Source of the DNA: an uncultured Silvanigrella sp.
GTDB lineage: Bacteria; Bdellovibrionota_B; Oligoflexia; Silvanigrellales; Silvanigrellaceae
Assembly (NCBI GenBank): GCA_903933385.1
Contig: CAIZJW010000129.1
Location: 22,207-86,206, forward strand
Reading direction: 5' to 3'
Length of the DNA stretch: 64,000 nucleotides
Shown here: positions 1,102 through 58,639 of the stretch, piece after piece
How positions within the stretch are numbered: position 1 is the first letter of the stretch
Layout of the letters: each line of letters opens with the position of its first letter
Program-made: the position numbers and the translations under genes
The notes under the pieces: generated by a model
Database searches by the model: none
What the model saw: the letters and a program-made list of their open reading frames with translations, nothing else
What the model was told of the DNA's origin: nothing

Positions 1102-1115
1102 AGCAGTTCAGGCTC

Positions 1116-3045: not shown

Positions 3046-3121
3046 TCAAAACCCCAACACTTTAATGCGCAAGCTCGAAACGAAGAGCCAAAGACGCACA
3101 ACAGCTGGCACGCTATCCGGG

Positions 3122-8428: not shown

Positions 8429-9384
8429 GCCGCTTCCCCTTTCCGATTTGTATTCAAGCGTTCATAAACAGCTGGTGCTCTCGACTTTAGCCCCGGAGTC
8501 ACGCCAATAATTGTTTCACTGTGTCCAAGAAACAAAAGTCCGCCCAACCTAAGGCAGCCTTCAAGCTTGCGGATCGTGGATTGGATTTCTGGGCGATCGA
8601 AATAGATCATCACATTTCTGCAAAATATGACGTCAAACTTAGACTGAAAAGCATAGGACGTGGACATGAGATTGAATGGTGCGAAGGTGATAAGATCTCT
8701 CAATGATTTCCTGACTCTCACCAGGCCATCAGAATCGCCCACTCCTCTGTCGAAACAACTATTCTTAAGATTATCTGGCACAGATTCAATTGCTTCCTGC
8801 GGGTAAACCCCGCGCGCGGCTTTTTTTAGAACATCGGTGTCGATATCTGTCGCTAGTATTTTAAGATGCCATCCCTCATTCGCAGGAAAAATCGCACTCA
8901 AACTCATTGTGATTGAGTATGCTTCCTCACCAGTGCTGCAAGCTGCGCACCAAACTCTAATCTCGCGACTCTTCTTTTTATCTGGATGATTGACAACGTC
9001 GCGGATCGATTTTGCAAGAAAGTCGAAATGTTGTTTTTCGCGGAAAAAGTGAGTTGTGTTTGTCGTTATTGCATTTATAAAAAGATCTCGGACATCACGC
9101 CTGCCAGCAAGTAGAGCCGAGTGAAGTTCTGAATATGTAGAAAACCCAAGGGGATTCATAATCTTGCCGATTCGGCTGGCGAGAAGGGTCTGATTTTTTG
9201 CAGACAACGTCAGGTTAATGCCAGCTTCTCTCCGAAGGTATTCAGAGAGTTTTCTAAAGCCGGCAAGATCGCCTTCAAGTTGTTTAGGGCTTACATCACC
9301 CGAGTTCAAAGACACGCGAATCTCCTTTTCTCGCTCACGCGAGATGTATCGGCTGTTTACCGAAAAGAAGAGCGTCAGATTCAT
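8425..9384 (-). CDS. cheR: Chemotaxis protein methyltransferase CheR
   Basis: Motifs TNTTHFFRE, IRVWCAACSTGEEAYSI (SAM-binding) and FDVIFCRNVMIYFD. The longest ORF starts at GTG 9462. I prefer ATG 9384 (MNLTLF..), which leaves room for a divergent promoter. The start is uncertain. Confidence 0.85.
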   Translation of the reverse strand: MNLTLFFSVNSRYISREREKEIRVSLNSGDVSPKQLEGDLAGFRKLSEYLRREAGINLTLSAKNQTLLASRIGKIMNPLGFSTYSELHSALLAGRRDVRDLFINAITTNTTHFFREKQHFDFLAKSIRDVVNHPDKKKSREIRVWCAACSTGEEAYSITMSLSAIFPANEGWHLKILATDIDTDVLKKAARGVYPQEAIESVPDNLKNSCFDRGVGDSDGLVRVRKSLRDLITFAPFNLMSTSYAFQSKFDVIFCRNVMIYFDRPEIQSTIRKLEGCLRLGGLLFLGHSETIIGVTPGLKSRAPAVYERLNTNRKGEAA

Positions 9385-9407
9385 GACAGAGCGTCGGAAA
9401 CAAAACG

Positions 9408-9433
9408 GAAATTTTTCGCAAATCATCCGATAC
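9408..9433 (+). promoter_or_regulatory. Candidate sigma-28 (FliA)-type promoter for the divergent cheW
   Basis: GAAA-N15-CCGATAC on the + strand, 30 nt upstream of GTG 9463. This is a partial match to the TAAA-N15-GCCGATAA consensus. Weak, pattern-only call. Confidence 0.25.
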
Positions 9434-9462
9434 CCACTGTGACTCTGGAAGGGGGAATTCAC

Positions 9463-23036: not shown

Positions 23037-23878
23037 AATCCACCGAACAAAAAATTTATGGCCGCAATGCTTGTCTATCATTTGCAAAATCGTCGCCTAA
23101 AACCGTTATCCGGGCCTACTGCACAGAAGAGAATCGCGGCCGATTGGGCTCTCTGTTAAAATTTCTTGCCTCACAAAAACGCGCCTATCATATCGTTTCG
23201 AGCGATGACTTGAATAAGATATGCGAATCTGAGCACCATGAAGGCGTCTGTTTGCTTGTTGAAAGAATGCAGCCAGGCGATGAAACACAACTTCTGAAAG
23301 ATATACAGGCAGAACCGAAAATCGGCTCAAATTTGCTGCTTTGTCTCGATGGAATCACCAACCCACATAATTTAGGCGCCATTACGAGAACCGCGGCTCA
23401 CTTTGGAATCAAGAAGATATTCTTGTGCAACATTCCGGTTGAATCGCAAAAATCATTGGTCTCTGGGGCGTTTCATAGAACTGCGGAGGGTGGAGCAGTC
23501 CATGTGGAACTCTATTGCAGCGCAGAGGGAAAATCAGCGCTTGAAGCTTTAAAAAAACAACATGGCTGGAATGTTTTTGCCACTTCTAGTTACGGCCGCA
23601 GCCAATCGCTGCACAAAATCTCATTCCCTCAAAAATTAATCTTGGTGATGGGTTCAGAATCCCAAGGCGTCAGTGATTCTATTTTACAAATTGCAGACTC
23701 AAAGGTTTGCATAAACGGCACTGGCCACGTTGAGAGCCTCAACGTGGCCAGTGCGACTGCCATTCTTCTGAACGAATATGCAAGGCAGAAAGAGAATTAT
23801 CGTTCGGCTGTGTCTCGACCAACAGCCATTCCAACACGCGCTGTGCGCGCCGAAGGAAGAAACCGCAAAGGATCTTGA
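23033..23878 (+). CDS. TrmH/SpoU-family RNA 2'-O-methyltransferase (RlmB-like)
   Basis: SpoU motifs LCLDGITNPHNLGAITRTAAHFG, LVMGSESQGVS and INGTGHVESLNVASATAILLNEY. Confidence 0.8.
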   Translation: MKSTEQKIYGRNACLSFAKSSPKTVIRAYCTEENRGRLGSLLKFLASQKRAYHIVSSDDLNKICESEHHEGVCLLVERMQPGDETQLLKDIQAEPKIGSNLLLCLDGITNPHNLGAITRTAAHFGIKKIFLCNIPVESQKSLVSGAFHRTAEGGAVHVELYCSAEGKSALEALKKQHGWNVFATSSYGRSQSLHKISFPQKLILVMGSESQGVSDSILQIADSKVCINGTGHVESLNVASATAILLNEYARQKENYRSAVSRPTAIPTRAVRAEGRNRKGS

Positions 23879-24555
23879 GGGACACCCCCAGCGACGCGTG
23901 TTTCAAAGTGGAGATGATAACCGGTGGCCCGACCACTCCGGCCCACATAACCAAGTAGTTCGCCAGCTCTCACGAATTGTCCTTCGCGGACAGCCAAACG
24001 AAGCATGTGCGCATAGAGAGTTTGAGTGTCGTGGTCGTGCCCAACAATGGCGACAACCCCGTAAGCTCTTTTTCTCTTCGCCAATAAAACCTGCCCATCT
24101 GCCGCGGCTATAATTGGATCACCCTTGAGTCCCTTGATGTCGACACCCGCGTGAAGGCGGCCACGTCTCATTCCAAACGGGCTCGTTACGTTTCCATCCA
24201 GCGGCCAGCTTAGGTCGACGGGAAAGAGCTTGGAGGTCATCATTTCCGACGCTTGCCCACCAGTGCTGAGCTCGATGGAGACATCAGCCTCTTCAGAAGC
24301 AGACTCTATCATTGGTCCGTCGGTGACGTCCTGGCCATTGGCTTTCTCGGCAGCAGCCTGATCATCGAAACCAAAAAAACGACTTTCAACTTGCCGCTGT
24401 CGCGACAAGAATACCGGATCGAGTTGCACCACCTCTGAAGATTCCGCGATTGAACCACGCAGAAAAAGCTCAGAAGTTTCGCGTTTTGCGATGCAGCCGA
24501 CGGAGGCCAAAACGGCCACGGTCGAAACACATCTACTCACACGAGACAAAAACAT
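23797..24555 (-). CDS. M23-family metallopeptidase (lipoprotein)
   Basis: Signal peptide plus lipobox (..VAVLASVGC). M23 motifs HAGVDI (HxxxD) and GYHLHFE (HxH). The 3' end overlaps the convergent TrmH-family gene by 82 nt. Confidence 0.85.
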   Translation of the reverse strand: MFLSRVSRCVSTVAVLASVGCIAKRETSELFLRGSIAESSEVVQLDPVFLSRQRQVESRFFGFDDQAAAEKANGQDVTDGPMIESASEEADVSIELSTGGQASEMMTSKLFPVDLSWPLDGNVTSPFGMRRGRLHAGVDIKGLKGDPIIAAADGQVLLAKRKRAYGVVAIVGHDHDTQTLYAHMLRLAVREGQFVRAGELLGYVGRSGRATGYHLHFETRVAGGVPQDPLRFLPSARTARVGMAVGRDTAER

Positions 24556-24868: not shown

Positions 24869-26845
24869 TTAAGTACTTGGGGTAAAGACAAAAGGATAGC
24901 TCACCTTCACTTCGCCCCCGCCTCTTGGAAGTGGGAATTGCCATCGTCTGATCTCTTGAGTGATGCAATACTCCGTAGGTCCGTCGCCCAAATCGGAATT
25001 TTGAATCGCCGAGCTAGAAACTCTGCCTGCAGGCGTAATAGTAAAGCGAGTCATGACTCGTCCAGCCAAACCTCGCTTGGTCTGCAAATTACGCTCATAG
25101 CAAGCTTTAATTTTTGCGAGATTAGCCCTGATAACAGCTTCGATTTCTTCGCGACTCAAGCTTCCTTCTAGAACACTGTCTCCTGCAGGGGCGCTCACCG
25201 AACCTACTTTAATTTTGCCACCCCCTCCGCTGTCACGGCGTCCGCCCGCACCACTGCCACCGCCGCCGAATCCACCGGCACCCAGCCCCTTCAGGGCATC
25301 GCCAGGACCTCCTGAAGAAATTGAGTTACCTTCGCCAATTCCTCCAAGTCCCATACTTCCCCTTTTTCCACTTCCACTGCCAGCGCCAAGCCCACCACCA
25401 TTGGCTTTGACACCAATTGCAATTTTGCCTGCCCCTTCAGCATTAATTGTCTTACCGATATCACTGCCAAGAGCATCCAAATTCAAGCCACCTAGTTCAT
25501 CCTTCTTGCCGCCCTCAACTCCCATCATGCTGGCCTTGTCATTCCCTTGCCTCTGACCAGCGAAAGCCCCAGAAGTTCCTCCTTTGGCTCCTCCACCATT
25601 GCCTGCGTTGGCGTTATTTTTCGGACCCAAAAAAGGATCCTTCGTATTCTTTTTCTCACCCGTCACAGGCCCTTTGTTTTTTGCTGGCGACTCGGGCTTT
25701 GGGTCGGGGCGTTTGATAGGCGTATTCACGACCGGTCGAGGAGTTGTTGCAGCACGCGGGGGTTGCGTGGGCTGTGGCTTTGGCTCCGGAGGCTTTTTAC
25801 TCGGAGCGGGTGTTTTGATGGCAACCGTTGGCTTAGGTGCAGGAGCTTCAGGTTTTTCAGTTGGCTTGGGAGTGGGTGTGCTCACGGTAAAAACGTTTGT
25901 CCATGCATCATCGTTGACTTCCTCTGCTGGAACGTAGTTCGCATTGGCAATTCCCAAAAGCAGAGAAAGCACAGCGTAAAGGACAGAAGCATAGGCAAAT
26001 ATAACTGGCTTACCATCAACATCATCGATCTTGCGCAAAACTGGATTGGGCAACGATACCCGCGTCATGAAGTAGCTCAGCGTGCCGTGCTGAATAAGGG
26101 CCATGTCATTGGCGGAGAGCTGAACCTCCGCGGGTCCTTTGACCTGTTCAAAGCGAGCCCCTCGTCGCACTCGTGCTCGCATTTCATCATTCAGATAGAC
26201 TACGGCCTTAGAACCTCGAACATCGGCAATTTTCAAATTTCGAGTATTTGCTTTCGGTCCAACGCCAATCAAGTCGCCATCGGCCTCATTTCCGATGATA
26301 ACTTTATTGCTACGAACTTCGTCTTCCGTTGAAAGCTGCTCGCCGCCATAATGGCGCACATCCAGAATACTCTGGTCCCAGAACGCCACCACTTCCAGTG
26401 TGCTTCCTGTGCGACGATCCTTCTCTGCAGTGAATAGAAGTCTTGAGTTAGCAATCCTAGGAACGGACGATTTATTTTGTTCGGCCTTTGCATCGGGTCC
26501 TGTTGCGGATTCTTTCCCGGACACCTGTCCTGTGGCAGCATCCGCTGCTTCCCGAACGCTGATAACAATATCACCAATGACAATTTCATCACCGACGCTA
26601 ATGTTGGTGGATACGTCAATGCGCTTGCCGTTCACCTTCACACCAATCTCACTCGCCATGTCGATGACTGATGCGAGTCCAGTCTCGGGATCCATTTCGA
26701 TCATGGCGTGAATTGGGTCGACGTTTGCACCGGGAATCACAAAATGATTGGTTGTGAGACGACCGACGATGACCTGTCCCGACTCAAGCACAAATGAGTC
26801 GGGGTATCCAGGAGACACCTTGTTCGCGACAAGAAAAAGAGCCAT
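24869..26845 (-). CDS. FHA-domain / TM / Pro-rich / Gly-rich / TonB-C-like protein (GltG/PglI-like)
   Basis: aa 24-95 form an FHA domain (VIVGRL..NHFVI..VDPIHAMIE...DMASEIGVKVNGKRI). TM helix at aa 281-302. PxP/KP-rich spacer at aa 322-392, Gly-rich region at aa 410-545. The C-terminal about 100 aa (LSREEIEAVIRANLAKIKACYERNL...VKVSYPFVF) resembles the AgmX/PglI-type TonB-C-like domain. Confidence 0.7.
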   Translation of the reverse strand: MALFLVANKVSPGYPDSFVLESGQVIVGRLTTNHFVIPGANVDPIHAMIEMDPETGLASVIDMASEIGVKVNGKRIDVSTNISVGDEIVIGDIVISVREAADAATGQVSGKESATGPDAKAEQNKSSVPRIANSRLLFTAEKDRRTGSTLEVVAFWDQSILDVRHYGGEQLSTEDEVRSNKVIIGNEADGDLIGVGPKANTRNLKIADVRGSKAVVYLNDEMRARVRRGARFEQVKGPAEVQLSANDMALIQHGTLSYFMTRVSLPNPVLRKIDDVDGKPVIFAYASVLYAVLSLLLGIANANYVPAEEVNDDAWTNVFTVSTPTPKPTEKPEAPAPKPTVAIKTPAPSKKPPEPKPQPTQPPRAATTPRPVVNTPIKRPDPKPESPAKNKGPVTGEKKNTKDPFLGPKNNANAGNGGGAKGGTSGAFAGQRQGNDKASMMGVEGGKKDELGGLNLDALGSDIGKTINAEGAGKIAIGVKANGGGLGAGSGSGKRGSMGLGGIGEGNSISSGGPGDALKGLGAGGFGGGGSGAGGRRDSGGGGKIKVGSVSAPAGDSVLEGSLSREEIEAVIRANLAKIKACYERNLQTKRGLAGRVMTRFTITPAGRVSSSAIQNSDLGDGPTEYCITQEIRRWQFPLPRGGGEVKVSYPFVFTPST

Positions 26846-26861
26846 ATCTCAGTTCCCTTCG

Positions 26862-27974
26862 TCAGTTCTGTCCGGCGTTACCGCCACCTTGACCAGTTCC
26901 AGAATTTGCTTCGCCCACGCCCGGTTTCGCTTTGTTCGCTTCTTCTGCTTCCTGCGTCTCAAGCTTGCTCAACAGATTGCGAACTTTGCTATCAACATCG
27001 AGAAGTGAGCCAGGCATAGAATTATACTTTTCAAGAGTTGCAATCGCACTTTTGCGCTTCGAAGGAACTTCTGACATTGCCAGAGCGGCGTTCCACAATG
27101 CTCTCTTGTCGTTGGGGCGAGAACGAACAACGGCGTTCAAATATTCAAGAGCCTCGTCGGGCTTTCCCGCCTGCCGATAGGCAATCCCAAGCGCGGCCTT
27201 TACGTTGATGTTGCCGCTCGCAGAGTCTTTGAGCTTGTTTAATTGAATCAACGCACCTTCGTGATCTCCAGCCTTCAACGCGAAAAAAGAAAGAGTCAGG
27301 ATTGCTGGCTCATACGAAAGCTTTGCAGCTTCGCGAAATGTTGCCATTGCAAGAACAACCTTTTTTTGCATGTAAAACATCAGACCACGCGCATGCAGCA
27401 CAGCAGCATTGACCTTACTCTTACCTTTTCCAACCGCTTCAGCCGAGTCAAGGAGATATTGAGCCATCCCGTAATCATTTCTTAACAAGGCGGTGTATGA
27501 GCATTCCAAAAGAATCCAGGGGTCTCTCGAAGAGGCTGTAGATCCACGTTTTTCTAAGACGGATAAAAAATCGCGACTATTTCCATAAAGCCTGCGAAAG
27601 ACTAAGTAGGAAATTAAGGCGCCGCCATCATCATTTCGTTCGCGATATGCCTGCTCCATATCACGCAATACATCTTCGAGCTTAGGCTGAGGTATTTGCC
27701 CTGCGAAAGTGTCTTCGTTGGACAAAGTTGTTGTTGCATATTCAACACTCGATTGTGGCGAAGGTGAATTTTTAACAACAGGAGCGGAACTACTCTTTTC
27801 TCCAGTCGCCGCACCCTTCGACTTCGCGCTGCGCGACTTTGATGAATTCTCATCAGGCTGAGCTGATTCAGCAGATTCTTGTGAAACTGCTGATTCGGTT
27901 GATTTGCATCCCGAAAAAACTCCAGTGGCAAAGACAGAAGTTAAAATCAAAAGAGTTGAATAAAAATATCTCAT
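26862..27974 (-). CDS. TPR-repeat lipoprotein (GltE-like candidate)
   Basis: From ATG 27974 (RBS GAGGGG): MRYFYSTLLILTSVFATGVFSGC, a signal peptide plus lipobox. Ser-rich linker followed by TPR repeats (e.g. ALGIAYRQAGKPDEALEYLNAVVRSRPND). Confidence 0.7.
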   Translation of the reverse strand: MRYFYSTLLILTSVFATGVFSGCKSTESAVSQESAESAQPDENSSKSRSAKSKGAATGEKSSSAPVVKNSPSPQSSVEYATTTLSNEDTFAGQIPQPKLEDVLRDMEQAYRERNDDGGALISYLVFRRLYGNSRDFLSVLEKRGSTASSRDPWILLECSYTALLRNDYGMAQYLLDSAEAVGKGKSKVNAAVLHARGLMFYMQKKVVLAMATFREAAKLSYEPAILTLSFFALKAGDHEGALIQLNKLKDSASGNINVKAALGIAYRQAGKPDEALEYLNAVVRSRPNDKRALWNAALAMSEVPSKRKSAIATLEKYNSMPGSLLDVDSKVRNLLSKLETQEAEEANKAKPGVGEANSGTGQGGGNAGQN

Positions 27975-27976
27975 TA

Positions 27977-30900
27977 TCAACCCCTCGGTTCTAGTGCTGA
28001 TTTAATCTTCGAAGAATCTAAAATCTCTGTCCCAACAAAAATAACTGTCGGGACCCATTCTTCAGATTTGCGGTATTTTGCTGGCTCCAGCCGCGCCAAA
28101 GAATTTAGAACCTTTTGTCCATACTCTGTATAAATATTGAATTTAGAGATGATTTCGCCAGAGCTCGAATAATAATCTTTCGCTTTCTTCTGAAGCTGAA
28201 CTCCAAGACCAGCAAGAGTAGCCTTGACCTTCTGCCAACCTTCCCCAGAAATCCCAGGAGGCTGAGGAGGATTCAATAATTCAGCAGCGACAAGTTCATG
28301 AGCATACCCCACGACGTACAGACTCGCTACCGACCATTCAGCATCACCGATATTCTGAGCCACAGAGGTAAACTTATCTGTGAGCTTCTTAAGTTCAGCA
28401 TTACGCTTCATGATATTCTGTTGAAACTCAGCGCCACTTTTTCCGCCAGTGAGAACCTCTCTGCGGAATTTGTCGAGCGCCGGAAATTCTTGCGCAAATC
28501 GGAGTGCGCCAATGTATGACAACGCTGGCCCGCTTATCGACTTCTTATTACTTTCATAAATTTTGAGAATCTGTTGCTGCGCGTTGCTCACTTTTGCTGA
28601 ATTGCCCGCACGTTTTGCAGCTTCCTCTATCCGATGCCAAATCTCAATTTTTTCTGAAGGATTAGTGGCCAAACGTAGCATATCTTTTTCTGCAAATGTC
28701 CAGAACTCCTGATAGCGTCCTGCTCGTTCGAGGACACCGCCCATCGATTCCGCAGCCGCACCAGCGGCAGAACCGCCCGCCGCAATAACCTTCGGACAGA
28801 CCTCGCGCGCTCGTTCCGCCTGCGATAGCGCTTCGTAGTACGCACAGGCTCCAGCCAGCAACTTTGGTGCCTTGGGAGAATTTGGAAAGCGAGAGAGATA
28901 CATTCTCACGTAATTGACGGCGGTTTGCAGCTGAATGCGCCCCGAAGACATGTCAATAATTTCCAGCATGGAATCACCAATGAGTTCGCTCTTTGGATAG
29001 TCAGAGATGACACGCTGATAGGATTGCACAGACTTGTCGAGACGATTAGCGCGCTTGTAGTTGACACCTGCATTGAACCACGCAGCATCAGCCTTCGAAT
29101 AGGATTTATCGGCAGCGAGCCGTTCGAATTCTTGGGCAGCTTGCTCATGCTTTCCGCTTGTTTCGAGATCTTTAAGCTCATCGAATCGGTTCGCGCGTTT
29201 AATCTCTCCAAGCCGCTTACCAATATCACCCGACGCAAGTTCGGGAATTGCGAGCAGTGAATTTGTCGTTTCCGAAAGTTTCTTTTTGTCATTTCTAGCG
29301 AGAAGCAAGAGAAATTCTGCGGCAGGTGCCCCTTCCTTTTTTCCAGCCCGTTCCTTTGCAAGAACTGTGAGTCGCTTCTCGGCTTGCGCCGTGTTGTTGG
29401 TTTTTAGAAAAATCTCTGCTGTATCAATCTGACAATCGAGTGCGCCTGACTTCTTCGGGAAGTAGCCTATATACGCATCACAGACATTCACATAATCCTG
29501 AAGATCTTTGCTCAACGGGCGTGGCGATAAATCAGCCTTGAACTGCTGACTGCGAAAAGCTGCCATGTCTTTTTGAATGATAAAATAGGACGACGTCCGC
29601 TGATATTCAAATGCCTTCTCAAAACGCTGCGGGTCGGACGAACGTAGTTCTTTATTGGCCGTGAAAGATGCAAACGTTTTCTCGGCATCCCTGAATTGAT
29701 CGCGCGTATATTGCAACTCGCCCAGCAGAAATCGGACCTCTGCAGCCTCTTTTCGATTCGGAAAAGTCGCAAGATAGATCTTGTAACCTTTTATAGCCTG
29801 TTCGATGTAATATGCACTTTTATCTTTTTGTCCCTGAAAGTGCATTTTTTTTGCATAGGTAATACTAACATTATGAATCTTTTCTTGTGTGTCTTTGAAT
29901 TCAGGAGATTTTGAATTGGCTTTTGTCCACGTAGATTCCGGACCAAAGCTTTTATTGAGCTCCATGACTTCTTTCCAAAGAAGACTTTTGTCATTCTTCA
30001 GATTTGCGGTATCAACGATCTGAATTTGAAGATCTGCCGATCGGAAGTCGTTGGGTTTCATCGCAATGTAGCTTTTTAGAACGCGAACACTCTCATCGTA
30101 TTCGCCTTTGTCTTGAAGAAGGTTTGAGAGCTTATTGAAAAGATCTCCCATATTCTTATCGTTGGCGTTCTTGCTAGTAAATGACATCGCTGCATCCACT
30201 TGCTTGAGTTCAACGAACGCAAGAAGCATGTCGCGCACGGCCTCGTCTTTGAGTCGTACTCTAATTCCTTTTCCAAGACTGCTTGAGGAATTTGATAGAT
30301 TAACCACAAGCTTCCACTTGTCGAGAGCCTTTTCGAACTGCTGGAGATTGAAAAGACACCACGCGATCTTGAATTCCGCCCAAGGACGAATGGGTGCACG
30401 AGTGAAGCGAACCACTTCATTGAACGAGGTCATAGCTTTTTGAAAGTCTAGCTTGCTAAAGAAATATTCTCCCAAAGCGTAATGAGCATCAGCAACACGC
30501 TTACTGTTCGGAAAATTCTTAACCACTCGACTGTAGTATTGGGCAGCTTCTTTTGTTTTTCCAAGCTGATCGAAGGCGTACGCTAATTGAAACGTAACCT
30601 CATCAATACCGCGTCCTTCCGGATATTCGGTAATGTACTGCTGACATCGCTGAATAACCTTACTTGTCCACAATACGTTGCTTTTCATGTTCATTTTGGG
30701 CTCGACTCCACGTCGACCACCCTCATCCCACTTATTCCAAGCCTCATCGTAGCTTCTTGATTCATTGAAGAACGTGAGAAGCGCCTTTTGATGCAAGCTT
30801 TCAATCAAACGACGCATAATTTCAGGACGCTGTTCAGACTTCCTAGGCAATTTGCCAACAAGCGGCTCCATGTACCGTATTTCATTATCAAGTGCTGAGC

Positions 30901-31165
30901 CAAGACTCCTCTCAACGGCTGCAGTTTCAAAGTCACTTCGTGAAAGCCCGCCGCCCTTTGCTTCGCGCTTTTCCCGTTCTGACTTTCCTTGCTTCCGCTT
31001 CCTTTCGACCTCGTTGTCGGTGCGCTCTTTTACGTTAATTTGCTGCGGTGCTGTATTGACTTTACTTTGGGCTGCGCCCCCCAACGAACTTGGTCCGGCA
31101 GCTTCTGCGAACTGCACAGAGACAACCATCAGAGCTATTGAGCTAAGACCAAACAAGGTTTTCAT
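27977..31165 (-). CDS. Large periplasmic TPR-repeat protein, 1062 aa (GltD/AgmU-like candidate)
   Basis: Signal peptide MKTLFGLSSIALMVVSVQFAEA. Many TPR/YbgF-like repeats along the whole length (e.g. AAQYYSRVVKNFPNSKRVADAHYALGEYF). The ATG overlaps the upstream stop (ATGA at 31162-31165). Confidence 0.7.
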   Translation of the reverse strand: MKTLFGLSSIALMVVSVQFAEAAGPSSLGGAAQSKVNTAPQQINVKERTDNEVERKRKQGKSEREKREAKGGGLSRSDFETAAVERSLGSALDNEIRYMEPLVGKLPRKSEQRPEIMRRLIESLHQKALLTFFNESRSYDEAWNKWDEGGRRGVEPKMNMKSNVLWTSKVIQRCQQYITEYPEGRGIDEVTFQLAYAFDQLGKTKEAAQYYSRVVKNFPNSKRVADAHYALGEYFFSKLDFQKAMTSFNEVVRFTRAPIRPWAEFKIAWCLFNLQQFEKALDKWKLVVNLSNSSSSLGKGIRVRLKDEAVRDMLLAFVELKQVDAAMSFTSKNANDKNMGDLFNKLSNLLQDKGEYDESVRVLKSYIAMKPNDFRSADLQIQIVDTANLKNDKSLLWKEVMELNKSFGPESTWTKANSKSPEFKDTQEKIHNVSITYAKKMHFQGQKDKSAYYIEQAIKGYKIYLATFPNRKEAAEVRFLLGELQYTRDQFRDAEKTFASFTANKELRSSDPQRFEKAFEYQRTSSYFIIQKDMAAFRSQQFKADLSPRPLSKDLQDYVNVCDAYIGYFPKKSGALDCQIDTAEIFLKTNNTAQAEKRLTVLAKERAGKKEGAPAAEFLLLLARNDKKKLSETTNSLLAIPELASGDIGKRLGEIKRANRFDELKDLETSGKHEQAAQEFERLAADKSYSKADAAWFNAGVNYKRANRLDKSVQSYQRVISDYPKSELIGDSMLEIIDMSSGRIQLQTAVNYVRMYLSRFPNSPKAPKLLAGACAYYEALSQAERAREVCPKVIAAGGSAAGAAAESMGGVLERAGRYQEFWTFAEKDMLRLATNPSEKIEIWHRIEEAAKRAGNSAKVSNAQQQILKIYESNKKSISGPALSYIGALRFAQEFPALDKFRREVLTGGKSGAEFQQNIMKRNAELKKLTDKFTSVAQNIGDAEWSVASLYVVGYAHELVAAELLNPPQPPGISGEGWQKVKATLAGLGVQLQKKAKDYYSSSGEIISKFNIYTEYGQKVLNSLARLEPAKYRKSEEWVPTVIFVGTEILDSSKIKSALEPRG

Positions 31166-32739
31166 TTCGCTTTGCCCTTATTTACACTGCCGCCGCACTT
31201 TGAATCGATATTGTAAACATATGCGCCCAACTCATCTTCCCAATATTCACCCTCAAAGGGCCAATATTCGAGTTGTTCTTTGATATTGAGCGGACGCATC
31301 CCTTCGCCCCATTCCGTTTTGTCAGCACCAATTGGTTCCCCTTGGTATTCGGTACGGATGGAGTCTGTTATGCCTCCGAGCAATTCAAGATTGATAAGTC
31401 GGGTTTGGTTACTGAGATCTTGCAAGTATCGAAAAAGCTGAACGGACTGATCGAAAACTTGTTGCCCAGTTCGTTCAGCCGTTGCAACGCGCAAATCCTC
31501 ATAAACTTTCTTCAAAACCTCTGCCAAACCATCAAATCGCGCTCCACGCGTGCGGAGAAGTCCTTTTTCACGATCCAGACCTCGAACAACAAGCTGCCCT
31601 TCCTTGAATCCTTCGGAGCGACTCACTGAATCAACTATGTCAACGGCAGCCGTGAATTCACGAAGCACCTTCGTGTTGCGATATCGAGTCACAACATCAT
31701 AAAAGTCAGAATATTTTTGATTGTATGTTTTAAGAAGCTGATTAAGGTCAGAAAATTTTGTGCGGTATCTATCCTGAAAACGCTTGAGAGAATCCTTTGC
31801 GTTCTCGTAGCGGCACAATCGCAAATATGTAATCGCAGAAAGAATATAGCTTTCTGGATAGAAGCGATTTTGGAAAAAGGGCGATGTAATGGTGTGAAGA
31901 TTCCCAAGGGTATTGTTGTGCCTTTGAATCATAAAGAAACCCCAGCCGCCTTCGAGAAGGGTTTGTAGCCAGAGATCAGAATCGCGTGGAATCTTCGAAT
32001 AGTTATCAAATGCAGCTCGATACTCTTTGCGCTCGTAGTGTGCACGCGCAAGGTTCATTGTCGCGAGCTGTTTGATATTGTCATTCGTCGCTCTTGCTTG
32101 TGAGCGCTTAAATGCATCAATTGCAGATTCTGGATTTTTTACAACTGAGTATATGATTCCGAGATAAAATTGTGCCAACGAAAAATAAGGACTGTTGCTG
32201 GGGACTCGATCAAAATCAGCTCTCGCTCTAATTAGATTGCTCGGGTTTGTTGGATTGCTATCAAATGACTCAAGGCCTTTGTGATAGAAATAGAAGCCTT
32301 GTGCTGCAGGCGGAATTGCCAAGGGATCGAGCTTAGCTTGAAAAAGACCCGCGATATTTGCTCGGCCGAGAGGAATTCTCGCATTTATATCACTCAGCGC
32401 CTCTAGCGCGGGGCGAAACAGATCGTTTCTCGAGCCCTGCTGGACGAGACGGCCGTAGAAATATGAAGCCCCGTAAGGAAAGCCAGCTCCTTTGAGCGAC
32501 TGTGCCAATCCAAATTCTGCTTGAGCTTTGGTGTCACCGCTTGATGAGTTCATAACTTGGTAGAAGAGACGCGATGAGTTCGCGTAGTCGCCAGCTCTGA
32601 AAAATCGTTTTGCATCATCAATGGGGCCTGCAAAAGCTGAATTCGAGCATGCGAGACAAAGCAAAGCTCCCAGCGCAGCCAGAGAACCGCTGGGCTTCTT
32701 GTAATTCATCTTTGATTTGAGTCGTTGCACGCTCATCAT
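31162..32739 (-). CDS. TPR-like lipoprotein (GltC-like candidate)
   Basis: Signal peptide plus lipobox ..SLAALGALLCLAC. TPR-like helical repeats (e.g. LARAHYERKEYRAAFDNYSKIP). The start is ambiguous: TTG 32754, ATG 32739/32736 or ATG 32709. Confidence 0.6.
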   Translation of the reverse strand: MMSVQRLKSKMNYKKPSGSLAALGALLCLACSNSAFAGPIDDAKRFFRAGDYANSSRLFYQVMNSSSGDTKAQAEFGLAQSLKGAGFPYGASYFYGRLVQQGSRNDLFRPALEALSDINARIPLGRANIAGLFQAKLDPLAIPPAAQGFYFYHKGLESFDSNPTNPSNLIRARADFDRVPSNSPYFSLAQFYLGIIYSVVKNPESAIDAFKRSQARATNDNIKQLATMNLARAHYERKEYRAAFDNYSKIPRDSDLWLQTLLEGGWGFFMIQRHNNTLGNLHTITSPFFQNRFYPESYILSAITYLRLCRYENAKDSLKRFQDRYRTKFSDLNQLLKTYNQKYSDFYDVVTRYRNTKVLREFTAAVDIVDSVSRSEGFKEGQLVVRGLDREKGLLRTRGARFDGLAEVLKKVYEDLRVATAERTGQQVFDQSVQLFRYLQDLSNQTRLINLELLGGITDSIRTEYQGEPIGADKTEWGEGMRPLNIKEQLEYWPFEGEYWEDELGAYVYNIDSKCGGSVNKGKAK

Positions 32740-32750
32740 AGATCTCTCAT

Positions 32751-33443
32751 TCAAAAATAATACCCTGCCCCAAATGATAGAGTCACACTCTGGTTCATTC
32801 CCTGTTCAATTCCGGGAATGAAAAAGAGACGCAATCCCCAGTTCAATGCTGAGTTCTTGCTTAAAAAATAACGCTGCCCCGTGCCCACATTAAATTGCGC
32901 AGGACTATAGGCTTTTGGCTGAATGACAACCTCATTCTGGGCAATGGGTTTACACCCTTGCTTTCGATTCTTCATACCAGCAACACCGCCACCGCCGCTC
33001 AGAAACCAATCAAAATAAATAACCTCGCCGTTGCTCAGCTGATACTTTCCGTAGATAGGCGTCAGATTTATTCCGCCCCCCGCAAGCATGCCAATTTCAT
33101 CGACAACGGGTTCAATATTGAATTTGCTTCCCAACTCAGTGCAGTCGGATTTGTTGATCGTTATTCCTGCTGCTCCTTCGCCAAAAACTTCGAGCCATTC
33201 CGTGAGATGCAAACCTGCTTTTGCAGAAGGCAGATAGGTGTATGTAAACGAACTGTTCATAACAGCTGAAACGTTTGCACCAATCTCAAATCGAATTGAC
33301 TTTTGAAAGTATTTGGGGCGAATGACGCGAATCTCAAAATTGCCAAATTGATTTTTCTTTTGATCCTCTGCTGCAGCCGCAACAGATGGTGCAAGCAACA
33401 AAAGTGGCTGAAGAATTAAAAATATTTTGAGAATATTTCTCAT
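32751..33443 (-). CDS. Small outer-membrane beta-barrel protein (GltA/GltB-like candidate)
   Basis: Signal peptide MRNILKIFLILQPLLLLAPSVAAAA. Beta-strand pattern with GGGG turns. The C-terminus ..TLSFGAGYYF ends in an aromatic residue. Its ATG abuts the upstream stop. Confidence 0.65.
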   Translation of the reverse strand: MRNILKIFLILQPLLLLAPSVAAAAEDQKKNQFGNFEIRVIRPKYFQKSIRFEIGANVSAVMNSSFTYTYLPSAKAGLHLTEWLEVFGEGAAGITINKSDCTELGSKFNIEPVVDEIGMLAGGGINLTPIYGKYQLSNGEVIYFDWFLSGGGGVAGMKNRKQGCKPIAQNEVVIQPKAYSPAQFNVGTGQRYFLSKNSALNWGLRLFFIPGIEQGMNQSVTLSFGAGYYF

Positions 33444-33962
33444 TCAGTTCACATCCCTCTTTTGAACTGCAAATTTCCAAGAAATAAACTCAGCCTGCTG
33501 AGCAGAGGCAAGAACTCTCTTTATGATTCGATATGGAATTGTTTTGTCAGACTGCATAACCAGCGTGGAAACATCAGAATTACTGAGGCCCAGATTTTTC
33601 TGACGATTCTTGAGAGTTTCGTTTTGGGCTTTTAACTTCTTGAATTCATCGTAGGCTTTACGAATTGCACCCTGGCCATCTTTTTTATATGCTTCTACCA
33701 CATCCTGTGAATTTGGCGTGAGAGGTATGACCACTCCACCCTGGAGCACAATTTCATTTTTTGTGATGGCAACTGAGGCCGCAGAATCGAGACTCACTTT
33801 AATCGAAGACATAGGTAATTCTAGATTTGCCGAAACTTCGGCACTTTCGCCGCTGACAGAAAAATTCATAAGAAGAAAAACGATCAAAATGCTGAAAACA
33901 TCGAGCATCGGGTAAAGGTTCAAAGAAAAGGATTCTTTACCACCAACATCTACGCCAGCCAT
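33444..33962 (-). CDS. ExbD/TolR-family proton-channel subunit (AglQ/AglS-like)
   Basis: N-terminal TM segment with the conserved Asp (LYPMLDVFSILIVFLL) and a periplasmic ExbD-like domain. RBS GAGGT. Confidence 0.85.
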   Translation of the reverse strand: MAGVDVGGKESFSLNLYPMLDVFSILIVFLLMNFSVSGESAEVSANLELPMSSIKVSLDSAASVAITKNEIVLQGGVVIPLTPNSQDVVEAYKKDGQGAIRKAYDEFKKLKAQNETLKNRQKNLGLSNSDVSTLVMQSDKTIPYRIIKRVLASAQQAEFISWKFAVQKRDVN

Positions 33963-33969
33963 GATTACC

Positions 33970-34530
33970 TCAATCTGCGAAAATCACGTTGCCAAGAACG
34001 ACTTTGGTCACCAGATTCGAAGGGTCTACGCCCACAGGCATTTTGTAGTCAGCGGGAAATGGAATGGGAGCTCGACCCGGTTTCAATTCCCGAACCGTGT
34101 CAAGAACCATCACAAGACTCTCATACGAAACTTCTGCTTGCGTAAACACGGTAACCTTGTCGAATTTCGGATTCTCTTTGCGAATGTCATAAATTTTTGC
34201 CTGAATTTTATCCAGGCCTTCTTCGGTGAGCGGCACCTCAATCTCATCTTTGATGGCCGAACTCGCAGTTGTTGCCTGCTGATATTTGACCGTCTTTGAA
34301 TCGATTGTGATGTTCACAGTCTTTTCCGGAGTTTTATCTAACTCTTCCTGCTTGGGAGGAGGCTGGCTCGACAAAAAAGGTACTTCAATTCGGGTTTCGC
34401 CGGTCGCTGAAAATACCGAGGTAGCGAGCAGAAAAATGATGAGCACAGAAAACAAATCAAGCATGGGCGTAACGTTTACGTCAAACGCGGTTGCGACCTG
34501 CTTTCTTTTTTTGAGCTTAAATCCGCTCAT
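33970..34530 (-). CDS. ExbD/TolR-family proton-channel subunit (second paralogue)
   Basis: TM segment with the conserved Asp (VTPMLDLFSVLIIFLL) and an ExbD-like periplasmic domain. RBS GGGAAGGA. Confidence 0.85.
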   Translation of the reverse strand: MSGFKLKKRKQVATAFDVNVTPMLDLFSVLIIFLLATSVFSATGETRIEVPFLSSQPPPKQEELDKTPEKTVNITIDSKTVKYQQATTASSAIKDEIEVPLTEEGLDKIQAKIYDIRKENPKFDKVTVFTQAEVSYESLVMVLDTVRELKPGRAPIPFPADYKMPVGVDPSNLVTKVVLGNVIFAD

Positions 34531-34553
34531 TTCCTTCCCTTTCGGTGAAGCAA

Positions 34554-35213
34554 TTATTCACCTGAAGATTTCGAAGCAAGATTAGTTCTTCGCATCTGAA
34601 GAAGTTCAATTAATTTTGCTGCAAATTCATCTGTGGTTTCTGTGGTTTGATTTGCCTTGAAGGTAAGTACTCCATGAACAACCATCGCCACGAGGGCAGT
34701 GCCCAATCCAAAGCCTGTTGCATAAAGGGCATGGGAGATACCTTCGGCAAGTTTAGTTTGCTTCGCAGCACCAGTCAGAGTTGCAACTGCACTGAAGGAA
34801 GTGATGAGTCCGGCAATTGTCCCAAGCAAACCAAGCAATGTTGTAATGTTGGCAAGCGTTCCAAAATAAGAAAGATAACGATTCACCAACGGAAGACGCT
34901 CGAGAGTGGAAGACTCAATTGCGTTTTGGGTTTCTTCGGCTGTACGACTTGCGCTTTGCAAGCCCTTCTTCCACACCCGTGGAAGAATTTGCTTCGCCGG
35001 CTGACGCTCACAGAGACGAATCGCGCTTTCGATTTGATTGTTTGCGACCTGTTTATATATTTCAGACCACATTCCTCTTGCATTTTGCGTGTCATAAACG
35101 AAATAGAGAAGCCAGCCTCTCCACAACGCCAGTGCAGCGACACAAATGAAAAAGAACAGGATCACATACATGATCCATCCACCAAACATAAACGCCCTTT
35201 GAATAAACTCCAT
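34554..35213 (-). CDS. MotA/TolQ/ExbB-family proton channel (AglR-like)
   Basis: Three TM segments. Family motifs GTLANITTLLGLLGTIAGLITSF and ISHALYATGFGLGTALVAMVVHG. Confidence 0.85.
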   Translation of the reverse strand: MEFIQRAFMFGGWIMYVILFFFICVAALALWRGWLLYFVYDTQNARGMWSEIYKQVANNQIESAIRLCERQPAKQILPRVWKKGLQSASRTAEETQNAIESSTLERLPLVNRYLSYFGTLANITTLLGLLGTIAGLITSFSAVATLTGAAKQTKLAEGISHALYATGFGLGTALVAMVVHGVLTFKANQTTETTDEFAAKLIELLQMRRTNLASKSSGE

Positions 35214-35297
35214 TCGAAGCCCCCCGGTCTCAGAGACGATTTCGTTTAAAAGTTTAGGGATGTTGGACGCTGTGAGTCAATGTTACTTAATTGGCCG

Positions 35298-35888
35298 TCA
35301 AAAATCAGTCCACAGTTTCAACTTATCGTAAACAGAACCTAAATCAGTTTCAGTCGGTAGTTCGAGCTTAAGTAACAACTGACCCTCTCGCGATAGGAGC
35401 CAGCAACTCGGCAGTTTTGGATTTTTTAGCTGATCGACAAATTCGGTTTGTGCTAATCCAAAAAGATATCGTGGCTTGCGCTTTTCGGCCCAGTTTTTCA
35501 GGTTCTCAGGAGTATCATGTGAGAATGCTGCAACCGCACCAATTCTGCGTTCGACAAAAAAGGAATGGTTCTTTTCAAAATAGTCATGAACCTGATCACT
35601 TTGTTTATTCCAGGTTCCTACAAGGCACACTAATGACAATCGAAAGGTGCGCGGCTCAAAGCTCACGCTGCGAGCTTGATTAGGCGGAAGAAGGTAAAGA
35701 GGCGGCAGTGACAGCCTTCTCTCATAGGGTGAGGGGTCTGGAGTAGGTTTGCTGCCCGCTGGCACAGCGCCTGAGTTTGCTGCCACTGCAATTTGTGAGC
35801 AGCAAAGAGCCATGGTCAGAATGCCGCTTGTCAAATTTAAGCCCCTGCACCCCAACAACGCCCATTCATCACGCACTTCTTGTTTCAT
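35298..35888 (-). CDS. Secreted thioredoxin-fold (TlpA/redoxin-like) protein lacking the CxxC motif
   Basis: Start at ATG 35888, behind a strong RBS AAGGAGG (35895-35901). Signal-like N-terminus. The position of the usual FWATWCGPC motif reads LVGTWNKQSD, with no Cys. Fold assignment is tentative. Confidence 0.5.
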   Translation of the reverse strand: MKQEVRDEWALLGCRGLNLTSGILTMALCCSQIAVAANSGAVPAGSKPTPDPSPYERRLSLPPLYLLPPNQARSVSFEPRTFRLSLVCLVGTWNKQSDQVHDYFEKNHSFFVERRIGAVAAFSHDTPENLKNWAEKRKPRYLFGLAQTEFVDQLKNPKLPSCWLLSREGQLLLKLELPTETDLGSVYDKLKLWTDF

Positions 35889-35960
35889 TTGGCTGCCTCC
35901 TTGCATTTGAGGTGACTCCTCGCGCGGACTCGGTATTATTATGTATCGAACATCTGCAGA

Positions 35961-52297: not shown

Positions 52298-52786
52298 TCA
52301 ACCTGGAAAGGGGGACAGCAGTCCCATCTCATAGCAGAAATCTTTCACAATCGGCAATTTCCAAGACACAAAGTGCGCAAGTAGAACTTCAAGCTCAACA
52401 AGTTCAACTTTGCTGAACTCTCCCTCCGAGCGAGCGAGATCGACACTCCCAAGCGTGGGAAGTTCAACAAGGAACCACATTTGCTCTTGCCCAATATTTG
52501 TGCGTTCCGGATGAGCCCTGAGAACCTCCGCCGGGAAATAATAACGTCTCCAGCAACGCGATTGTGCAACAACTGTGACCAGATCTGGCGCAACTCCCAA
52601 CTCTTCAGAGAGTTCCCTTAAGAGAGCGGCACGAACATCCTTGTCATGAGACTCAACACCACCTTGAACTGTTTGCCACACGCCCTGTGGGTGACTTCGT
52701 TCGCAGCGCAGATATTTATCGCCGACCCTAATTAAGGCAGCAACATTGGCGCGAAATCTCGGTTTCATGAGATCTTCATCTTTCAT
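52298..52786 (-). CDS. NUDIX hydrolase (RppH-like)
   Basis: Nudix box GGVESHDKDVRAALLRELSEELGV, preceded by WQTVQGG as in RppH-type enzymes. Confidence 0.75.
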   Translation of the reverse strand: MKDEDLMKPRFRANVAALIRVGDKYLRCERSHPQGVWQTVQGGVESHDKDVRAALLRELSEELGVAPDLVTVVAQSRCWRRYYFPAEVLRAHPERTNIGQEQMWFLVELPTLGSVDLARSEGEFSKVELVELEVLLAHFVSWKLPIVKDFCYEMGLLSPFPG

Positions 52787-54116
52787 TGTTCACCTGACTT
52801 CTGAATTGAAAAAGCTCGGCCAGCGACTCGCATTTGAGGTCACCGCTTTCGGGAATGAATTTTACCTCGAGACATAAAACAAAAAGCCGCCCGGATCGCA
52901 TTAGCTCCCTGAACTCTGGAGTTTCCCACCAGCGGCAGAGATCCTTGAGCGTTGTGACAACAGAATGTTGCGAACGGATGACACGGCGCGCAGCGGAATT
53001 AAGTTCGCCGTGATCAGCAAGAAAAGCGCTTCCCACAACAACAGGTCTGTGTTGGGGGGATTCAAAAATCGAATGAAAAGATTGAGCGAATCGCTCTGGC
53101 CTGGCAATTCCGCAGAGCAAACTCGCCTGTGCGGGAAACTCCTCTGGACCAATACTCTCGAGGGAGAAGCCAGGTGCCGGTTCGTTCGGCAAAACTCGCG
53201 CAAGCCATGTTTCTTCAAGGGCAACAAAACGAAAATCAGTCTCAAGAGCACTTGCTGGGCTTTCAGAGGGAAGAGGTTCGCCCGCAATGGGTGCTCTGGG
53301 ACATTGAAATATGCGCTCACGGGCACGAGTCACAAAATTCAGGAACTCATTTTTTTCAGAAATAGATTTTACTCTAGACCACACAATGACGTCGGCACGC
53401 GGCAGCGAAAGCGCCCAGGGACGCGCGCGTGGCGAGCCCATTCTGTAAGGCCCAAAAGGTAAACAAAACTGGGGAGCTTCAACAACCGAGTGAGGATCCC
53501 AAACAACGATATCGCGATGAACAGGCAAAGCGGTCTGTTGCAATCCATCATCGACTATCACCAGCATTTGGCGAGAACTTTCGACGCCACGCTGAGATTT
53601 CAAAGCGCTTCTTCTTTGCAAAATTCCTGCAAGCAACTCGGCTCTGTGACTCCCCTCGGCAAACCAGAGTGATGCATCGGAAGGAAGATTCTGCTGCAAT
53701 TGCAAAACATGTTCGAGAGATTCATCACTCAGAGAGGCCCATGACTGCGAAGTCATGGGTTCGGAATGTCTCGAAAAGTGAAGAATAGGCGCCATCAATC
53801 CAGCATCTTTACCCACACCCCGTGTGAGAACGGCCACATCAAAACCGTCATTGAGGGCCCATCGAGCCAATGCTCGGACCACCGGACTTTTGCCCGTGCC
53901 ACCGACTGATACATTGCCTACCGATACTATCCAGGGCTCATCTCCCACCGGAGACTTCGCCCTCATCCGAAGGCGAGCCCGCCTCGCTGCAAGAACAGAC
54001 CACACCAAGCTCAATGGAAGAAATAGAATGAAACTGAGAACTGCAAACCAGACCGCTCGACGCGGCATCTGACGTTCCAACTGTCCTCGTAGATATTCAC
54101 TCCAAGCCAAATTCAT
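52776..54116 (-). CDS. lpxK: Tetraacyldisaccharide 4'-kinase
   Basis: P-loop VSVGNVSVGGTGKSPVV and C-terminal ..DHGE..TTLKDLCR. motifs typical of LpxK. The ATG overlaps the msbA stop (ATGA). Confidence 0.85.
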   Translation of the reverse strand: MNLAWSEYLRGQLERQMPRRAVWFAVLSFILFLPLSLVWSVLAARRARLRMRAKSPVGDEPWIVSVGNVSVGGTGKSPVVRALARWALNDGFDVAVLTRGVGKDAGLMAPILHFSRHSEPMTSQSWASLSDESLEHVLQLQQNLPSDASLWFAEGSHRAELLAGILQRRSALKSQRGVESSRQMLVIVDDGLQQTALPVHRDIVVWDPHSVVEAPQFCLPFGPYRMGSPRARPWALSLPRADVIVWSRVKSISEKNEFLNFVTRARERIFQCPRAPIAGEPLPSESPASALETDFRFVALEETWLARVLPNEPAPGFSLESIGPEEFPAQASLLCGIARPERFAQSFHSIFESPQHRPVVVGSAFLADHGELNSAARRVIRSQHSVVTTLKDLCRWWETPEFRELMRSGRLFVLCLEVKFIPESGDLKCESLAELFQFRSQVNNER

Positions 54117-58120: not shown

Positions 58121-58143
58121 TTTCAAAATTATGCTTTCAACAC

Positions 58144-58614: not shown

Positions 58615-58639
58615 TTGCAACGAACTCCCAGATATTGCT

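Follow-up and report, generated by a model that had tools for sequence, protein, structure and literature searches.

The 64,000-nucleotide stretch of contig CAIZJW010000129.1 from an uncultured Silvanigrella sp. (assembly GCA_903933385.1), here called the window, carries eight minus-strand genes that very probably form the operon of an Agl/Glt-type trans-envelope machine, the Silvanigrellales/Oligoflexales counterpart of cluster Bd0828-0838 of Bdellovibrio bacteriovorus and of the AglRQS and GltA/B-C-D-E-G proteins of Myxococcus. This reading is founded on which components the operon encodes and in what order, on the compartments predicted for them, on the conservation of the operon, and on the family relationships of its proteins. 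An earlier note on the same DNA had proposed a machine of this kind that is neither a Ton nor a Tol-Pal system, and both parts of the proposal hold. Models derived from Myxococcus match four of the five non-motor proteins (GltC, GltG, GltE, and OMP_myx_plus). The profile hidden Markov model comparison that the note had called for gives matches to the Glt-family models, whereas the TolQ, TolR, ExbB, and ExbD equivalog cutoffs are missed widely. A Ton or Tol-Pal identity is excluded on the equivalog scores, on the channel tree, and on the lack of TolB, Pal, and a TonB-dependent receptor in the window.

The genes run in one direction from 35213 to 24869, with open reading frames at the coordinates given in Table 1. 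Their junctions measure 23, 7, 0, −4, −4, −4, and 16 nt in transcription order, which agrees with the close, co-directional packing described in the earlier note, as do the ATGA overlap at 31162-31165 and the stop/start abutment at 33443/33444. A second abutment, reported at 27974/27977, is present when the GltE-like gene starts at ATG 27974, and gives way to a 4-nt overlap when the upstream TTG 27980 is used. Metagenome gene callers picked slightly later ATG starts for two of the genes, giving products of 525 and 370 amino acids, a difference that leaves the picture as it is.

The first three genes encode the motor subunits, and domain models agree with their former assignment as one MotA/TolQ/ExbB channel and two ExbD/TolR paralogues that keep the transmembrane aspartate. 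The channel has three hydrophobic segments and matches PF01618 MotA_ExbB in Pfam at 83 bits. Among the NCBIfam equivalogs it reaches 63 bits for TolQ (cutoff 221) and 35 bits for ExbB (cutoff 206). Both transmembrane threonines of TolQ/ExbB, corresponding to TolQ T145 and T178, are kept. The TolR-like proteins match PF02472 ExbD at 58 bits (186 amino acids) and 47 bits (172 amino acids), with TolR equivalog scores of 31 and 21 bits (cutoff 127) and ExbD scores of at most 30 bits (cutoffs 123-216). Each has one transmembrane helix, and D25 of the longer and D21 of the shorter protein align with E. coli TolR D23 and ExbD D25. In every Oligoflexia locus, and in L040, a metagenome-assembled genome (MAG) of the Bdellovibrionales, the first TolR-like gene has its best match in the 186-residue paralogue; the 172-residue paralogue and the second TolR-like gene of L040 have a common insertion after the transmembrane segment. 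The order of the two paralogues is kept in all of these loci. A search of PDB sequences with the channel returned TolQ and ExbB matches only. The label "motor" for the locus is justified.

The phylogeny of the channel points the same way as the earlier note had expected. A neighbour-joining tree of 207 columns and 100 bootstraps, with a single E. coli TolQ and a single ExbB as references, places the window channel within an Oligoflexia clade (90% bootstrap). A wider group with 100% bootstrap contains the window channel together with the glt-linked channels of Bdellovibrionales and Myxococcota, and leaves E. coli TolQ and ExbB outside. The same group holds channels from other phyla, whose gene context consists of one channel, two ExbD paralogues, and giant tetratricopeptide repeat (TPR) proteins, and no TolB, Pal, or TonB-dependent receptor stands beside these distant members in the gene contexts viewed. 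This combination is the hallmark of the system class.

Distant relatives of the channel with a different conserved layout were seen in a microbial-mat metagenome (L088, 1-12123) and a Cloacimonetes MAG (L089, 2253-12328). Their order is two giant TPR proteins (about 700-950 and 1,330-1,440 amino acids), one or two small open reading frames, the channel, two ExbD proteins, and an unannotated protein of 443-479 amino acids. This layout suggests core-complex-like systems well outside Proteobacteria.

The last gene of the operon encodes a 658-residue protein that matches NF033760 gliding_GltG (E 9e-43, 147 bits). Its architecture is the one the earlier note had drawn. A cytoplasmic FHA domain at residues 25-91 (PF00498, 39 bits) is followed by a transmembrane helix at ~283-303, a Pro-rich and then Gly-rich linker, and a TonB-C-like tail. 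The last 92 residues (563-654) constitute an AgmX/PglI C-terminal domain (NF033768, 104.7 bits, cutoff 40). A Tyr is conserved in the transmembrane helix, and the His known from the SHLS motif of TonB/TolA is not present there. Weak FHA and TonB matches were the only ones in PDB sequences, and we know of no Agl or Glt structure. The tail also gives borderline matches to TonB_C (22.9 bits, cutoff 24.6) and TIGR01352 (26.9 versus 27.1), as would suit an ExbBD-TonB-type energiser for nutrient uptake at the outer membrane. An energiser of this sort is the least probable identity of the locus, as the window has no TonB-dependent receptor, the channel stays far below the ExbB cutoff, the SHLS His is missing, and the barrel of the operon is of the 8-stranded OmpA-like type and not a 22-stranded plugged transporter.

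TPR domains are confirmed by Pfam in three operon proteins. The 530-residue protein matches NF033756 gliding_GltC over residues 184-520 (E 7e-48, 164 bits), a family with 1,188 representatives at 50% identity (E <= 1e-10). It has the invariant residues of the family, namely R237, C314, E503, W505, D507, and C520, and carries the E[YWF]WxDE[LI]GxY motif from the near-invariant C-terminal signature YWPFxGE[YWF]WxDE[LI]GxY...C. The invariant cysteines C314 and C520 could form a disulfide. The AlphaFold2 (AF2) model of this protein has a predicted local distance difference test score (pLDDT) of 88.3 and a predicted template modelling score of 0.84, and comprises a TPR solenoid (44–345), a long helical hairpin (381–471), and then the region of the C-terminal motif. 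Foldseek found generic TPR superhelices for the model, and no solved structure that resembles the C-terminal module.

The 372-residue protein matches NF033758 gliding_GltE weakly (E 6e-9, 35 bits). Its gene has a conserved slot between the D and G genes, and it is the most diverged component of the operon. Both this protein and the GltC-like one had been described as TPR lipoproteins. The description stands for the GltE-like protein, in which Cys25 of the lipobox FSGC is conserved in every lineage examined. It fails for the GltC-like protein, which has a signal peptide and no canonical lipobox and whose relatives have A-x-A signal-peptidase I sites and no conserved Cys; from these features it is predicted to be a secreted periplasmic protein and not a lipoprotein.

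The 1,062-residue protein has a signal peptide and four stretches of CpoB/YbgF-type TPRs (TIGR02795, 102 bits). In one Myxococcota and one Bdellovibrio locus, the protein encoded directly after gltC (the D position) likewise matches only YbgF-type TPR models. The window protein aligns with the post-gltC proteins of Bdellovibrionales and Myxococcota over 970-1,014 residues at 21-22% identity. With alignments of ~1,000 residues and an identical gene position, it qualifies as the likely GltD (AgmU) counterpart. Curated GltA, GltB, and GltD models were sought in NCBIfam and none appears to exist, so that the GltD and barrel assignments rest on homology and synteny.

The CpoB-type repeats of the 1,062-residue protein, together with TolQ as the best curated model for the channel (63 bits) and an M23 peptidase gene downstream on the same strand, would also fit a divergent Tol-Pal-like system for outer-membrane integrity or constriction, with the GltG-like protein as TolA and the CpoB-like TPR protein as CpoB. 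Such a system is very improbable. It would have two TolR paralogues instead of one, and the window has neither TolB nor Pal; the TolQ and TolR equivalog cutoffs are missed widely, and E. coli TolQ falls outside the clade. Glt-specific families are present in GltC, the GltG tail, and OMP_myx_plus. Curated tol-pal loci are reported for Oligoflexia (PMC12204202), and the M23 gene is 313 nt away. As the earlier note had stated, no TonB-dependent receptor, TolB, or Pal lies nearby. None was found among the scanned open reading frames of at least 150 amino acids in the window, or in the annotation of the matching contigs.

The 230-residue protein completes the Agl/Glt-type set at the outer membrane. 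It has a signal peptide, a C-terminal Phe, and a match to TIGR04565 OMP_myx_plus at 62.6 bits (cutoff 60), and its AF2 model, made with 40 homologues, forms a barrel at residues ~50-230 (pLDDT 88.5); its earlier designation as an outer-membrane barrel is therefore upheld. In Foldseek the barrel resembles the 8-stranded OprF-N, OmpA, Ail, and OmpX. A weak OmpA-like match has been published for M. xanthus GltA, which agrees with this fold. Barrels encoded ahead of gltC in loci of Myxococcota, Bdellovibrio, and Oligoflexales carry the OMP_myx_plus domain as well.

The most conserved stretch of the 230-residue protein lies between the signal peptide and the barrel. It reads EIRVIRPKYFxK (residues ~37-48), or in its fuller form F-x-x-[YFV]-E-[IV]-R-V-I-R-P-[KR]-Y-F-x-K (residues ~36-48). 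V40, I41, and K48 are invariant, and R42, K44, and F46 are conserved in at least 90% of sequences. In the barrels of Bdellovibrionales and Myxococcota the motif can still be made out in the form V-[VI]-Q-x-[KR]-x-F-x-K, and in the AF2 model of the window protein it is unstructured and of low confidence. Islam et al. 2023 (PMC9946355) describe unstructured N-terminal extensions in GltA and GltB and a potential TonB box in GltB, and propose that GltG and GltJ pull on this box. By analogy, if the window barrel offers the C-terminal domain of the GltG-like protein a handle of the TonB-box kind, its N-terminal peptide is the best candidate.

The arrangement of the operon is conserved beyond the window. 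Proteins identical to those of the operon occur on several metagenome contigs, and the nearest named relatives are Silvanigrellaceae and Silvanigrellales MAGs (class Oligoflexia, phylum Bdellovibrionota). Species-representative genomes were scanned with the most conserved GltC motif, which gave at least 579 loci, and the best 80 were classified against the window proteins. These 80 are all MAGs, and the M. xanthus and B. bacteriovorus HD100 proteins are thus not in the pairwise comparison. Among the best 80 loci, nine other species-level genomes from Silvanigrellales, Oligoflexales, and Oligoflexus have the order R-Q-S-barrel-C-D-E-G, with amino-acid identities of 22-71%, and further partial contigs agree with it. 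Since the eight-gene order recurs in nine other genomes, the arrangement is not due to chance, and the neighbourhood comparison across Bdellovibrionota and Myxococcota advised in the earlier note comes out in favour of syntenic glt homologues. Identity to the window is highest for the channel of a Silvanigrella sp. (71%) and falls to about 21–29% in Bdellovibrionales. The loci of Bdellovibrionales and Myxococcota follow the pattern (barrel)(barrel)-C-D-(E)-gap-G, with the motor genes after G or kilobases off. One OMP_myx_plus barrel is found in the window and in all Oligoflexia loci, as against two in the Myxococcota loci. Literature searches turned up no account of gliding, or of glt/agl clusters, for Silvanigrellales or Oligoflexales.

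A second agl/glt-like set, with another arrangement, was seen in an Oligoflexia MAG (L087, 6863-18675). It has the order R-Q-Q, followed by proteins of 163, 1,150 (TPR), 117, 555, 258, and 688+ amino acids. A gene for a protein with GYF_2 and PilZ domains lies 1.3 kb upstream of this set on the opposite strand. A GYF domain is also present in M. xanthus GltJ.

By homology with TolQR/ExbBD and with the M. xanthus Agl-Glt machine, a mechanism can be proposed for the operon. The TolQ-like protein and the two TolR-like paralogues, which keep both transmembrane Asp and both transmembrane Thr residues, would form a proton-conducting motor in the inner membrane. This motor would drive the single-pass GltG-like protein, whose Pro/Gly-rich linker would span the periplasm and whose TonB-C-like AgmX/PglI domain would engage the outer-membrane module. 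The FHA domain of this protein would be the sole cytoplasmic module. The periplasmic scaffold would comprise the soluble GltD-like protein, the GltE-like lipoprotein, and the GltC-like protein, which is presumed to be soluble and associated with the outer membrane. The 8-stranded barrel would serve as outer-membrane anchor, and its N-terminal peptide as the handle pulled by GltG. An AglR-GltG interaction is documented in M. xanthus (PMC3169522), and a TonB-like model has been put forward for that machine (PMC9946355).

Several points weigh against the identification of the locus as an Agl/Glt-type machine, or against a role of it in motility. The channel tree was built without M. xanthus AglR. 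The channel has His161 at the site of the transmembrane helix 3 Glu (TolQ E173, ExbB E176). The equivalog cutoffs for GltC (164 of 450 bits), GltE (35 of 225), and GltG (147 of 650) are not reached, which makes the window proteins family-level homologues for which iso-functional orthology with M. xanthus is not demonstrated; a Myxococcota MAG cluster also stays below these cutoffs, with 239, 138, and 359 bits. In the FHA domain of the GltG-like protein, the Ser-Arg of the S-R-x-H motif is replaced. All Oligoflexia homologues have [E/D]-P-I-H at this position (VDPIHAM in the window), and S-R-x-H is kept in some Myxococcota and Bdellovibrio GltG homologues. The Ser-Arg is the canonical phosphothreonine-binding pair of FHA domains. 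GltF, GltH, GltI, GltJ, GltK, a second barrel, a VWA adhesin of the CglB type, and the cytoplasmic platform and regulators (AglZ, MglA, the MreB link) are all missing from the window, and GltF, H, I, J, and K are essential for gliding in M. xanthus, whose barrels GltA and GltB depend on one another for stability. In the view of Luciano et al. 2011 (PMC3169522), motility is not likely to be powered by the core complex on its own. Finally, cultured Silvanigrellaceae are reported to be motile on soft agar, which is attributed to flagella and pili, and gliding is not reported for them.

A dead motor was considered as an explanation of His161 and was rejected. The residue is fixed in 44 of 44 homologues of the Silvanigrellales clade, and the site varies across the Agl-type clade, with Glu in Oligoflexales and V, L, M, I, N, Q, or K elsewhere. 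His161 is best read as a lineage trait at a variable site and not as a defect.

Because the operon is related to Bd0828–0838 and to the Myxococcus machine, its most likely output would be surface-associated movement or adhesion of the gliding type, a prospect that we place just short of even. Luciano et al. 2011 (PMC3169522) picked Bd0828–0838 as the best candidate for the gliding apparatus of Bdellovibrio, which glides. Their definition of a potential glider comprises AglRQS with GltD, E, F, G, C, A, and B; the window has a single barrel and no GltF. The gap between the E and G genes measures 16 nt and leaves no slot for GltF, and no GltF, H, I, J, or K was found among the window's scanned open reading frames.

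The same Agl/Glt-type complex could instead use the proton-motive force to move, expose, or assemble surface material, such as a surface polymer (as for the Nfs spore coat of Myxococcus) or a protein or adhesin on the surface with which the cell attaches to prey or host. We regard this non-motile output as a substantial possibility, although still on the lower side of even. According to Luciano et al. 2011 (PMC3169522), the core complex of many non-gliding bacteria has no known function and Nfs is a derivative that does not serve motility, and the window does not contain the Group A genes that M. xanthus needs for gliding. Four operons of this kind exist in Bdellovibrio, with different regulation, and prey attachment is impaired by a transposon insertion in Bd0838 (aglS; PMC6561027). 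The lack of reported gliding in Silvanigrellaceae is in line with such an output as well. On the other hand, the described cluster closest to the window was put forward as the best gliding candidate in a gliding bacterium, and no cargo, polysaccharide-synthesis, or export genes lie beside the operon.

The single-barrel operon of the Oligoflexia might, in addition, be a self-sufficient minimal Agl/Glt machine that works without GltF, H, I, J, or K and without a second barrel, and in which the EIRVIRPKYFxK peptide transmits force as an analogue of a TonB box. This is an unlikely reading. If true, it would make the operon the simplest natural version of the machine, tractable for reconstitution and structure determination, and it could reveal the ancestral function of the widespread core complex.

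Table 1. Features of the operon and of its surroundings in the window.
Feature	Coordinates	Strand	Basis
AglR-like MotA/TolQ/ExbB-family proton channel, 219 aa, 3 transmembrane segments	34554..35213	(-)	PF01618, tree
AglQ-position ExbD/TolR paralogue, 186 aa, transmembrane Asp25	33970..34530	(-)	PF02472
AglS-position ExbD/TolR paralogue, 172 aa, transmembrane Asp21	33444..33962	(-)	PF02472
GltA/B-type outer-membrane beta-barrel, 230 aa	32751..33443	(-)	TIGR04565, AF2
GltC homologue, 530 aa from TTG / 525 aa from ATG 32739	31162..32754	(-)	NF033756
GltD(AgmU)-position periplasmic TPR protein, 1,062 aa, signal peptide	27977..31165	(-)	TIGR02795, synteny
GltE(AglT)-like TPR lipoprotein, 372 aa from TTG / 370 aa from ATG 27974	26862..27980	(-)	NF033758
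GltG homologue, 658 aa	24869..26845	(-)	NF033760, NF033768, PF00498
Sigma-70-like promoter candidate, TTGACT-18-TAAACT	35251..35280	(-)	consensus scan
202-aa open reading frame directly upstream of the operon, secreted or membrane-anchored	35298..35906	(-)	no Pfam/NCBIfam match
M23 peptidase	23797-24555	(-)	
Chemosensory cluster	235-9462	(-)	
CheB	3122-4222	(-)	
CheD-CheB fusion	4219-5781	(-)	
CheA with N-terminal receiver domain	6242-8428	(-)	
CheR	8425-9462	(-)	
Big_9/cadherin-like/RCC1 protein, 1,211 aa	10785-14420	(+)	
RelA_SpoT-domain protein, 432 aa	35961-37259		
FAD_binding_4/FAD-oxidase_C, 4Fe-4S dicluster, and CCG fusion, 1,207 aa	37308-40931	(+)	
Outer-membrane biogenesis block	52776-62836	(-)	

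The 84-nt gap 5' of the first operon gene contains one sigma-70-like site. Scans of the region for promoters and terminators gave no enrichment of either over shuffled sequences; position alone counts for the promoter candidate, which is suggestive. The 202-residue open reading frame upstream has one hydrophobic N-terminal segment and is conserved at this place only in Silvanigrellales loci (L001, L003, and L006), and is probably a lineage-specific neighbour outside the machine. Downstream, a gap of 313 nt separates the last operon gene from the M23 peptidase gene. Another M23 peptidase gene (L088, 13969-15000) lies a few kb downstream of the microbial-mat R-Q-Q cluster, and the presence of such a gene near both clusters may be a coincidence. 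GC content is even throughout the region, and Rfam and tRNA scans of the window gave no match.

The flanking genes are chromosomal housekeeping genes, including those for lipid A synthesis, bamA, skp, msbA, aroA, htpG, galactose genes, and a che cluster. The outer-membrane biogenesis block is of a standard type, consisting of bamA, skp, lpxD, fabZ, lpxA, lpxB, an msbA-like ABC exporter, and lpxK, and it confirms a diderm chromosomal context. The chemosensory cluster lies about 15 kb from the operon. The 1,211-residue protein has Big_9 and cadherin-like domains and, at its C-terminus, a propeller of RCC1 repeats; it is a possible surface or adhesion protein. The 1,207-residue fusion resembles a one-chain GlcD-GlcF-type oxidoreductase, and the gene just upstream of it encodes an atypical RelA_SpoT-domain protein.

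The machine class itself was described in 2011, and the general picture set out then is unchanged. A specialist would not be surprised by the operon. It is a new member of that class and not another kind of system, has a permuted and slightly reduced layout, and is now seen in Silvanigrellales and Oligoflexales. The compact single-barrel operon provides a minimal component list for structural work and reconstitution, and a specific, testable candidate for the coupling element in the barrel N-terminal peptide and the GltG C-terminal domain. It also brings into the known range of these systems a branch of the phylum that is not predatory and can partly be cultivated, where Silvanigrella and Fluviispira might be used for genetics.

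Compared with Tol-Pal and Ton, the window operon belongs to the same motor superfamily and likewise combines a proton channel with a Pro-rich, periplasm-spanning transducer that has a TonB-C-like head, as well as CpoB-type TPRs. It differs in its two TolR/ExbD paralogues, the FHA domain on the transducer, the three large TPR proteins, and the small OmpA-like barrel.

The core complex, as delimited by Luciano et al. 2011 (PMC3169522), consists of aglR, Q, and S with gltC, D, E, and G. These authors reported it as one locus from several phyla, and in four expanded sets from B. bacteriovorus. The core complexes of Gammaproteobacteria, Geobacter, and Fibrobacter resemble the window operon in being a single locus with the same seven families and one extra gene. 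Their extra gene is reported to lack homologues in Myxococcales and Bdellovibrionales, whereas the eighth gene of the window is the OMP_myx_plus barrel. The earlier note had suggested that the locus may be a reduced or divergent variant. The novelty was overstated, since adding one barrel to the published core complex gives exactly this set, which also closely mirrors Bd0828-0838.

The M. xanthus Agl-Glt machine is encoded in three clusters (M1, G1, and G2), in contrast to the one operon of the window. The window has homologues of AglR/Q/S and GltC/D/E/G and a barrel of the GltA/B type. Shared details are the FHA-TM-linker-AgmX/PglI-tail organisation of GltG (TM being the transmembrane helix), a GltE lipoprotein, a secreted GltC, and, as in GltA and GltB, an unstructured N-terminal extension on the barrel. 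The window proteins are shorter, with 530 versus 673 amino acids for GltC and 219 versus 245 for AglR.

The closest described system is the "expanded core" agl/glt cluster Bd0828-Bd0838 of B. bacteriovorus HD100 (Luciano et al. 2011; Lambert et al. 2010). A review of 2026 calls the gliding machinery of Bdellovibrionota unidentified (PMC13104615). The comparison was made through Table S3 of Luciano et al. 2011 (PMC3169522) and through L040, which has the same layout. The Bdellovibrio cluster has two barrels (Bd0828/0829) versus the one of the window, and its motor genes are 3' (B-B-C-D-E-G-R-Q-S), whereas those of the window are 5' (R-Q-S-B-C-D-E-G). Identity is only 21-29%, the GltE-like protein of the window is longer (372 versus 281 amino acids), and the host of the window is a Silvanigrellales lineage outside the Bdellovibrio and like organisms. 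Both hosts belong to the phylum Bdellovibrionota, and L040 is homologous to the window gene for gene, except that no GltE counterpart was scored. The two systems have the same set of proteins at nearly equal sizes. Bd0828–0838 encodes barrels of 240 and 266 amino acids, GltC of 529, GltD of 1,066 (Bd0832), GltE of 281, GltG of 707, AglR of 221, AglQ of 158, and AglS of 196; the window encodes, in the corresponding order, proteins of 230, 530, 1062, 372, 658, 219, 186, and 172 amino acids.

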